A stretch of 64,000 bases of DNA from Podarcis cretensis (GCA_951804945.1 OX638150.1:73036001-73100000), one strand, 5' to 3'. Shown: positions 30,601 to 33,600, counted from the first letter of the stretch. Notes: generated from the sequence alone by a model not told the origin. Program-made: numbers and translations.

Positions 30601-33600
30601 CTAAGTAATTATTCCATCAGCATTGCCATTACAGGGTCACCGGGAACAGGCAGCTCAATGCTGATAGAACAGGGCTGATGACGACAGACAGAACCTTAGT
30701 GCTTGAGATCAGGTCCCTGCTGATAACTCTTTGGTACCACAATGTGCCAGCTACCCATACATGAACGGTGTCTCTTCCTTCCACTCTGTGTTTACGGCAA
30801 ACACTTATTTTATGTCTATCTGCACACACCTTCCCAACTGCTAGGCACCTTAAGGCATAAAACGTAAATGGATGAAATAGTCAGTATGCTTAACCCCCCA
30901 CCCCCCAAATTCTATTTACTGGCACATCTCTGTGTTTCTGGATCCACTGGTCCAGGTTGTAAGAATGCATGTATTCTTGGGTAGTGACAAGGATGACTGA
31001 GACGATCAGAGGGCAGCATATGCATGAAGATAGCTCTCTATATTTAATTCATTTTGCTTTTGTGTGAATGGTAAACTCTTCACCGCACAGACTTTGCCAA
31101 CTCAGGCCACGTTAAAGGACCTTTAACCCTGGGAATAACTGACAGTATAGTTGGTCCCTGTTTCAGCTTTGCCCTTGCCAAAATCAGAGTTCCAATCATG
31201 GCTTTCATGTAACCCGGGCTGTGTACACACTTCTGTTTACTCTGCACCCAGGGCATTCCCACCACAGATTTATGAAGCTGTGTACCCATGGCATTAGCCA
31301 TGATCCACATCTATCCTGCCATTTCTTCAGAAACACTGCATTTGGATGTGTTTTCTCCCAAACCAGCTTCAATCCAATTGGAAAACGTAAGCCATATGAA
31401 GACATCCATGCCCACTGATGTGGACAGGCAGTGGGTGACCTGGAAATTCATCCAACTGCACTGACATGCAAATGCAAATTGAAATGTAGCAAAAAGGGGA
31501 AAAGAGAGACCTTGCTGCATTTTAAACTGATAATGTGCAAACAGCCTCAGACCATAACATATAAGGAGTGCTCTAGGATGCCTTTGTTCCCCATTGTCAA
31601 TATTTTGCTTTTGCTACAGAGCAGTCATTAGTAATTCTTTTTCTTCTGCTGCTCATGCCATAGCTGGATGAAATGCTGCAGTGGATGCTGAGGTTGCACA
31701 TTCCTCTATACCAGGGATGGGGAACATGGTGCTCTCCAGATGTTGCTGGACTCCAACAGCCAGCAGAGCCCATGGTCAGGGATAAATGGATGTTGTAGTT
31801 CCAAAGCATCTGGAGGGCCACAGGTTCCCCATCTTTGCTGAGCTCATTATTTAGCAATACAGAACCCTGATAACAGTGGCATCTGCATTCTAAAGCATCT
31901 GCCTCAATGTAGGTGGCCTACAAGACAGTGGCATTGGAATTTTATTGTGGAAAGCTTCCAAGGCCCAGAAAGGTCTTCTGCTATTCTTAATGTCCCGTGT
32001 ACACATATTCATGTTCATAATTGGGGGAGATGACCAGCAGATCCTATTTTGTGTTCAAAGTGAAGTGCAACTGCTCTGCAATTCTCAGGACTTGACCCAC
32101 AAGAGAAGGAGGAAACAGAAATCTATGGAGACCCAGGCTCTATCTATAGCCCCCAAAATGCAAAACAGGATGCAAAACAGTTTTAGCCTAAGGTGCCAGA
32201 TAGACTGCAACTGGATTCTCAAGGTGCTGAATCAAGACCCTTGTGAGAAATTTACCACATCAAATTTAGGAAATTATCTTCACGCTGTACCCTTTATCTA
32301 TGGGAAGCTAAGGGACAGTTATTGTTAATGGAAGTATTGTTGCTGGCTGCAACTTGCGAGGGCTATGTCTTTTGGGGAAACAACTTTGATCTGCATGTAG
32401 CTAGGGTATGGACAGATCAGTCTATTTATGTGCCCATGACAATTTCACATTCCTTTACTCATTAGTCCAGCCCAGCCCATTTGTGAATTCATCTGTGAAT
32501 TTTTAAAGGTTTGTATGAAACTTGGTATTTAAATGAGTGTTCAACTATATTCTTAAATAATATTTGATCACAAAATACATTTTTAAACCCCTATTTATCT
32601 TATGGCACACATTTCTAAATGCATTTTATCCTAAAGTATTTATTTTAATGCATTCTGGTGCATTTTTTAAATAGTTGAGACCTGTCCTGCAAAATTCTAA
32701 GGACTCTGACGTCCTGATCTGTGTGTCCATCCAGGAGGTGTGAATTAGGTCTGTTTGCTTGGAAATGCAGACCAAAAGAAGTCCTCCTCCATCCCTACAC
32801 ACACTGTGGACCTGTCTGAGATTTCTACTTTCCCTGCTGTTTCAGTACTCAATAAGCCTAAATATTTTCTTGTGGAAGTGATATTGGACTCCATTTTCAA
32901 ACACTTCTCAGTCTGAAGGTCTCTGCACAGCCCTGTCCCATTCAGGTTGAGTTGTCTTCAAGAAGAAGGAAAGCACAGGGACAAGGATAGGGGAAGAAGA
33001 TTTGTAGGGTAGGCGTGAGACAGGAGAGGAGAAAGGAAGGAAGGGCGTGAGGGAGGCATTTTTGCAGGGAGAAAGAAGAGCAGGATATTAAAACTAGCTA
33101 CAAAAAACCTTATTGAATTCAAACATAACAATTCCATATGAAGTTGGCTCGTCTTAAACGGACTGAGTCTCTGAGCAATGCACAGGGAAGGAGTGGGGAG
33201 ATCAGTAGTGGTGAAGCTATTATGAACATAACAAGACATGTTGCTTTCAAAAAAAGGGTGAACGAGTTTGAGGGGAGGAAGTGGAGGAGCAGGAGACAGG
33301 GAGGAACAGTTTGGTGGTGGTTTGCAAGGTTAGGCGTGGCAAACGGGCAAGGTAATGGGCAAGCAGGCCGGGTAAGTGGTGAGGGGGAACGGTGAAGGTT
33401 TGGAGTGACAGGTGGGGGTACTGGACACGGGTGAGGAGAAGGGGGTGGTGGAAGGGGAGTGGTCTAAGACTGAAAATACTTGCCCTTCAATTTGCTTGGT
33501 ACTGTGTGAATCCATCAGAGAGAGAAAGCAAGAAAAAACAAACAAAAAACAGAAAACAAAAAAGGGGGGTTGGGTGGAAAGGGGAAGGGGTACAAACAAT

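Follow-up and report, generated by a model that had tools for sequence, protein, structure and literature searches.

A probable shared splicing cassette around the GC-donor microexon 23 of lizard CACNA2D2 and its CACNA2D1 counterpart

The split between the paralogs CACNA2D1 and CACNA2D2 is tied to the vertebrate genome duplications. As described in the accessible parts of the literature, exon 23 of alpha2delta controls the trans-synaptic recruitment of GABA-A receptors (PMC6445987, PMC11677996): exclusion of the alpha2delta-2 exon brings about this recruitment in mouse (PMC6445987), and the exon-less (delta-E23) form of either paralog recruits the receptors (PMC6445987, PMC11677996). The same sources and their neighbors report, in the portions available, that exon 23 affects gabapentin affinity (PMC3988960), that its splicing goes wrong in SCA1 mice (PMC13482548), and that in mammals the exon 23s of alpha2delta-1 and alpha2delta-2 occupy equivalent positions (PMC9901441). 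In the rat, cortex and DRG are reported to include alpha2delta-1 exon 23, whereas heart and muscle skip it (PMC3988960), and a Cacna2d1 microexon, unnumbered in the text available, is SRRM3-dependent in mammalian beta cells and influences insulin secretion (bioRxiv 10.1101/2022.04.02.486809). The literature searched names no cis elements that set exon 23 inclusion.

Microexons under SRRM3/4 are 27 nt or less in length, and their UGC usually lies a few to 20 nt from the acceptor. The accessible account of the eMIC microexon code lists a long AG-exclusion zone and an upstream UGC among its features (PMC8797185). Introns of the GC-AG class make up about 1 in 20 alternative introns versus 1 in 200, and their C at +2 is described as offset by a strong match elsewhere in the site (PMC3167603, as far as its available text goes). 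Exon 23 itself, its function in mouse, its equivalence to alpha2delta-1 region C and the presence of the lizard isoform in RefSeq are already known. What the comparison below may add of lasting value, drawn from one genome plus protein annotations, is an apparent cis-module conserved between the paralogs and its triplication in lacertids.

The DNA analyzed here, referred to as the window, is a stretch of 64,000 nucleotides from Podarcis cretensis (GCA_951804945.1 OX638150.1:73036001-73100000). It holds about 22 exons of CACNA2D2 from a Podarcis-like lacertid: one exon of 51 amino acids is 100% identical to Podarcis alpha2delta-2 proteins, and the stored protein P0005 tiles the window exon by exon. 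Three of these exons concern us here.

36857..36933, minus strand: upstream constitutive exon, exon 22 counterpart, ending QVK + T with the donor gtaagt
33484..33501, minus strand: 18-nt phase-1 cassette microexon, counterpart of CACNA2D2 exon 23 (from reading, in-silico splicing and RefSeq isoforms)
25482..25542, minus strand: downstream constitutive exon, exon 24 counterpart (from protein matching)

An earlier note on this DNA had described an 18-nt microexon whose acceptor is AG and whose donor is GC, inside an 11-kb interval, converting QVK-Y-FEY to QVK-LPSKLKD-FEY. This description proved exact, with the exon at 33501-33484 on the minus strand and 11,314 nt measured between exons 22 and 24. 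With slashes marking the splice junctions, its context reads ...ctgatggattcacacag/TACCAAGCAAATTGAAGG/gcaagtat..., and the acceptor ends in cacacag. Lying between the QVK and FEY exons, this cassette preserves the frame and puts a K-rich peptide ending in KD in the place of Y, a net insert of six residues. Both the skipped and the included form are open when spliced in silico, and letter-for-letter matches exist among the stored proteins for each (seven for the skipped form; four, P0005, P0115, P0119 and P0123, for the included form). At the junction of the microexon with exon 24, GC..AG is the only placement of canonical type, as a slide by one base gives GG..CA. Furthermore, the microexon is the sole candidate (1/1) in the 11.3-kb intron when an AG, an in-frame length of 9-30 nt and a donor with at least 8 of 11 consensus letters are required, and it is therefore not a chance find. 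Two variants were rejected: a 21-nt form from a neighboring acceptor is ruled out by the letters preceding the AG, TTCACAC, and an alternative GT donor four letters downstream of the microexon would shift the frame.

For inclusion in this lizard we rely on the RefSeq models of lacertids. LPSKLKD is present in isoforms X1 of P. raffonei (XP_053233389.1), X1 and X3 of P. muralis and X1 of Lacerta agilis, and both isoforms occur in the RefSeq models of these three lacertids, contrary to the expectation in the earlier note that gene predictors would likely miss the exon. Four runs over 25400-33520 gave 0 rows at the microexon junctions; the raw-read run had a depth of 0 on exon 24, and the contig runs held mostly intron or repeats, so that this result weighs neither for nor against inclusion. 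These runs, together with several lacertid models that list the skipped form alone (P0002, P0008), would also suit a relic that is conserved in this lizard and no longer spliced in. Against intact splice signals and an included form annotated in three lacertids and letter-identical to the window, we find a relic hardly credible. The 18-nt stretch is a real optional exon of lizard CACNA2D2 and, as the earlier note had held, the counterpart of the known mammalian switch, with which it agrees in position and phase (mouse exon, 21 nt: PMC13482548, available text).

Several smaller observations touch the surrounding introns. The exon 22 donor (36855-36859) has T at -1, AGT/GTAAGT, and CACNA2D1 likewise has T/GTAAGTAG; read-through of the exon 22 donor accounts for the 'CKY' inserts that numerous models from birds and turtles carry. 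A single contig of a different organism, guessed to be RNA (25482-26184), is apparently spliced from exon 24 to exon 25 and continues into the intron upstream of exon 24, and two Logan proteins (P0219, P0555) run on past the end of exon 22 into intron sequence. Judging by such single contigs, removal of the introns flanking the microexon may come late. Positions 29424-29500 and 31717-31838 hold short high-copy repeats, likely transposon fragments, that draw reads and contigs of many loci.

We compared 224 alpha2delta-2 proteins, a set of cluster representatives plus members rather than a census, and found the anchor motif in 178, with QVKY in 84 of these and QVKLPSKLKD in 20. The 20 LPSKLKD carriers (20/224 proteins) come from 15 squamate species, including P. 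raffonei, P. muralis, Lacerta agilis, Anolis, Sceloporus and nine snakes, and the skink version is LPSKMKD. Eight-residue peptides occur in geckos (LPISKVKD, nine proteins), birds and crocodilians (LPNIKMKD or LPNNKMKD), monotremes (LQTIKMKD) and marsupials (LSISKLKD), and the placental peptide is presumably LPISKLKD. Frogs and salamanders have 21-nt, eight-residue forms; gar, sturgeon, paddlefish, eel, tarpon and a coelacanth model also have 21-nt forms, and percomorphs (cichlids, sea bass, a wolf-eel) have a 15-nt form. Given the counterparts in gar, sturgeon, coelacanth and frogs, these protein records place the exon at least as far back as the bony vertebrates. The proposal that the switch predates the mammal/reptile split was right and understated its age. 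The accompanying claim of a peptide one residue shorter applies to the non-gecko squamates sampled and fails for reptiles as a whole, as geckos, birds and crocodilians keep 21 nt. The loss of 3 nt, common to the skink, lacertids, iguanians and snakes sampled, dates to after the gecko split.

The AlphaFold model of the skipped form has a helix at 629-639, and that of the included form has coil at 628-652 with pLDDT under 50; both models are of low overall confidence (mean pLDDT 59), and their alignments each contained included as well as skipped rows. By these predictions the insert would likely break a surface helix, a direction that agrees with the homology models in the available text of PMC6445987. 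That source also bears out the earlier note's statement that exclusion confers GABA-A receptor recruitment in mammals, and in the lizard inclusion would switch off this trans-synaptic recruitment as it does there. PDB chains of alpha2delta-1 show the same site both with and without a SKKGKMKD insert. The natural series of 9, 15, 18 and 21 nt and the tandem copies of lacertids (see below) bear on whether the length of the insert matters or merely the breaking of the helix.

Donors were compared by their predicted pairing with the 5'-end sequence of U1.

33476..33483, minus strand: GC 5' splice site GCAAGTAT, identical in all three CACNA2D1 copies

The microexon donor, AGG/GCAAGTAT, carries 8 of 11 consensus letters and matches the U1 5' end perfectly from +3 to +8. 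Its predicted pairing is -7.2 kcal/mol, compared with -11.9 kcal/mol if +2 were T. Among the 13 GT donors of CACNA2D2 that were scored (-2.7 to -12.9 kcal/mol), 6 are weaker than the GC site. Consequently, the description of the site as weak holds for the 4.7 kcal/mol lost at +2 and not for the site as a whole. All features of a GC-AG U2-type intron are present, namely GC at +1/+2, a near-consensus remainder, an AG acceptor and no other canonical placement. The very weak -2.7 kcal/mol belongs to a constitutive donor, AAT/GTGCGT, at 46862-46872. Read in frame past the microexon, the intron start (33470-33483) gives GKYFQ, which resembles the VKYFE of the exon 22-24 junction. An Alligator sinensis model (P0193), probably a prediction artifact, reads through the exon as LPNIKMK-GKYFQ; its GKYFQ equals that of the lizard intron and so indicates that the intron start is conserved, with GC and GT indistinguishable from the peptide.

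A search of the lizard's own genome located a second gene, CACNA2D1, on contig C10 (CACNA2D2 lies on C2). Three units lie in tandem in its intron, and every one of them has a 9-nt exon, a G/GCAAGTAT donor and a hairpin.

C10:74090794, C10:74087908 and C10:74086382, minus strand: copies of the CACNA2D1 9-nt exon (genome search)

The units measure 0.7-0.9 kb and are about 80% identical overall, with cores identical at 247/249 and about 229/245 positions. The core of 247/249 belongs to copies 1 and 2, which are about 81% identical overall, and this suggests constraint or conversion. All eight inclusion combinations are open. Lacerta agilis RefSeq models match two of them exactly, X3 with a single inclusion (FPKV) and X2/X5 with a double inclusion (FPKVQNV), and the duplication is therefore no assembly artifact. 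Among the CACNA2D1 records examined, none matches inclusion of just copy 3, of copies 1+2 or of the full set of three, and no insert appears in Podarcis CACNA2D1 among the members listed (15/27 of the cluster). Elsewhere, alpha2delta-1 has 9-nt forms in turtles, crocodilians, Anolis, a gecko and a rattlesnake, and a 15-nt form in birds. Bowfin has both CACNA2D1 and CACNA2D2, which places the split of the paralogs before the divergence of ray-fins and tetrapods. The genome has two further alpha2delta paralogs of more distant kinship, likely CACNA2D3 and CACNA2D4, at C2:82.84 Mb (+) and C10:18.71 Mb (+), and both the exact hairpin and the acceptor-donor pattern are absent from them.

Comparison of the introns around the microexons of the two genes brought out the following elements.

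33502..33518, minus strand: conserved block up to and including the acceptor AG, containing CTGAT, a branch-point-like motif; 14-15/17 identical to the CACNA2D1 copies
33528..33530, minus strand: UGC at -29 relative to the acceptor, a candidate element for SRRM3/4 (eMIC); putative role after the available text of PMC8797185 and bioRxiv 10.1101/2022.04.02.486809
33504..33614, minus strand: AG-exclusion zone of 111 nt with a long U/C-rich tract (sequence scan)
33597..33634, minus strand: inverted repeat spanning 38 nt and lying 95 nt upstream of the acceptor (fold prediction, genome pattern search)
33226..33475, minus strand: C-rich downstream tract with 15 YCAY motifs, a possible NOVA/PCBP-type enhancer (motif count)

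The identity of 14-15/17 over the last 17 acceptor nucleotides compares with 5-10/17 for paired constitutive acceptors, and CTGAT with its A at -14 is found in all four exon copies. The CACNA2D1 copies have their UGC at -29, -29 and -26 and AG-free zones that span 88-91 nt. The inverted repeat is predicted to form a 15-bp stem with one bulge and a 7-nt loop. In either gene, no AG lies between the one in the hairpin's loop and the acceptor, so that the hairpin marks the far end of the AG-free zone. Between the paralogs the hairpin block scores 60-64, compared with at most 23 for 17 paired constitutive-acceptor rows (one of them a spurious short match, and one further exon pair omitted (N)), and a 56-nt query scores 51-55, compared with a maximum of 31 across 460 background tiles. 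Searched over 1.5 Gb, the patterns for the hairpin and for the acceptor-to-donor stretch have four matches apiece, precisely the four exons, and the reversed controls have 0. Pattern matches at 20 loci in metagenome contigs were discarded as chance, with the hairpin arm upstream in 0/20 and pyrimidine fractions of 0.35-0.60.

Is the inverted repeat an RNA structure? Its arms are 100% identical in all four copies of this one genome, which leaves no compensatory change to score and no covariation, and a primary-sequence motif fits the arms equally well. Tandem sites for AU-rich RNA-binding proteins, or a duplicated element conserved at the DNA level, could then account for the repeat with pairing incidental, and the AU-rich, modest stem (-9.7 to -11 kcal/mol) would agree. 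Rfam likewise has no family at gathering score for the hairpin (best 16.4 bits versus 54; five weak matches, E 2.2-7.5). However, the loop, variable in both length and sequence, is where conservation ends; the predicted fold of the region reaches z = -2.70 (1/200 shuffles equally stable), and the strand and a distance of 68-95 nt to the microexon are kept in 4/4 places. We consider such a primary-sequence element unlikely, though a serious contender, and favor a hairpin that pairs. In CACNA2D1 (C10:74090904-74086451, minus strand), the 5' arm of a hairpin would pair equally well with the 3' arm of a later copy; this predicted cross-copy pairing (-9.6 kcal/mol, 1.5-4.4 kb apart) could loop out a microexon.

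It is likely, on the sequence comparison, that the GC donor and hairpin, both read in one genome, predate the duplication that gave alpha2delta-1 and alpha2delta-2, with the length of the exon having drifted (9, 15, 18 and 21 nt). Similar flanks could also have arisen by a later transfer, through gene conversion or a mobile repeat, or by convergence; the evidence comes from one genome, and the alpha2delta-1 insert is unseen in the bowfin (0/5) and skate/ray (0/15) records examined, the Callorhinchus records being unanchored. Yet the similarity is confined to three short blocks, the genes are on different contigs, the exons flanked differ (18 vs 9 nt), and the patterns occur nowhere else in 1.5 Gb. 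The mammalian exons, moreover, are positional equivalents in the available text of PMC9901441. Because the blocks are short, on different contigs and around differing exons, shared descent is favored and later transfer or convergence appears very unlikely.

We then ask which factors may act on the cassette. Both the length of the AG-free tract and the presence of a UGC fit the published code (PMC8797185), and together with the SRRM3-dependent Cacna2d1 microexon and the tissue pattern of rat exon 23, in the parts of these sources available, they lead us to infer an SRRM3/4-type activator. With 18 nt, a multiple of three, the exon is within the length limit of such microexons, and its UGC at -29 is distal relative to the usual range, though in a position common to the paralog. 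Inclusion might instead be set mainly by NOVA/PCBP-type proteins on the YCAY tract, or by PTBP1/MBNL, with the GC a frozen neutral relic. The distal UGC and the mid-range U1 pairing lean this way, as does a Cacna2d1 cassette exon, unnumbered in the available text, that is regulated in smooth muscle too (PMC5062968). The 250 nt downstream hold 15 YCAY, where shuffles give 10.1 +/- 2.0 and 19/1000 reach 15, and the count ties the highest of 255 window tiles. The tract is 44% C, however, and the excess is small after composition; the CACNA2D1 copies, with 5-7 motifs, lack the cluster. A neutral relic is also hard to square with GC in 4/4 copies of two old paralogs when a C-to-T change would gain 4.7 kcal/mol. 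We regard control by these other factors as rather improbable.

CACNA2D2 exon 23 is an optional in-frame GC-donor microexon and probably sits within a splicing cassette that also surrounds CACNA2D1 exon 23 and likely arose before the two genes split. The parts of this proposed cassette would be the upstream inverted repeat, the long AG-free tract with its UGC, the conserved acceptor and the G/GCAAGTAT donor. Skipping would likely be the default owing to the tiny exon and the mismatch at donor +2, and inclusion would occur in the presence of a neural or endocrine SRRM3/4-type activator. Situated at the upstream end of the AG-free tract, the hairpin would likely gate or tune access to the 3' splice-site region.

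A bolder version, which we put forward tentatively and at somewhat less than even confidence, is that the hairpin and GC donor form a single cis-regulatory RNA module that sets exon 23, arose before the duplication and is vertebrate-wide, with selection acting on the switch and not on the peptide (9-21 nt). The module triplicated in lacertid CACNA2D1 could then act as a dial of 0/3/6/9 residues, with cross-copy pairing of arms looping microexons out. In practical terms, footprinting between the paralogs yields three short candidates: the hairpin, the acceptor block with UGC, and the GC donor. The literature searched, from which subscription papers and the supplements of structure screens were largely outside coverage, gives no account of a shared GC donor, hairpin or tandem copies. 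The main text of a 2026 genome-wide structure preprint (10.64898/2026.10.24.761493) contains no 'CACNA', and its supplements could list the hairpin.

Among known systems, mouse and human CACNA2D2 exon 23 (PMC6445987, PMC7351808, PMC13482548, in their available text) is like the lizard exon in position, phase, K-D end, cassette behavior and predicted helix-to-loop change, and differs in length, with 21 nt in mouse (PMC13482548) versus 18 nt in the lizard. CACNA2D1 exon 23, or region C (SKKGKMK; PMC3988960, PMC9901441 and PMC11677996, likewise as available), is its positional equivalent, and in this genome the two have the GC donor, acceptor block, UGC position and inverted repeat in common. In contrast, CACNA2D1 exon 23 measures 9 nt in squamates, turtles and crocodilians and 15 nt in birds, versus 21 nt in mammals, and is present here in three tandem copies. 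The microexons of SRRM3/SRRM4 (eMIC), as described in the accessible parts of PMC8797185 and bioRxiv 10.1101/2022.04.02.486809, resemble the lizard exon in being short and frame-preserving, with a long AG-exclusion zone and pyrimidine tract and an upstream UGC, whereas the lizard exon has a GC donor, a distal UGC and an upstream conserved hairpin, features that those parts do not mention. Finally, the lizard CACNA2D2 donor shares with GC-AG U2-type introns a compensated C at +2 (PMC3167603, available text), but unlike them its GC is common to paralogs that split before the bony vertebrates diversified.
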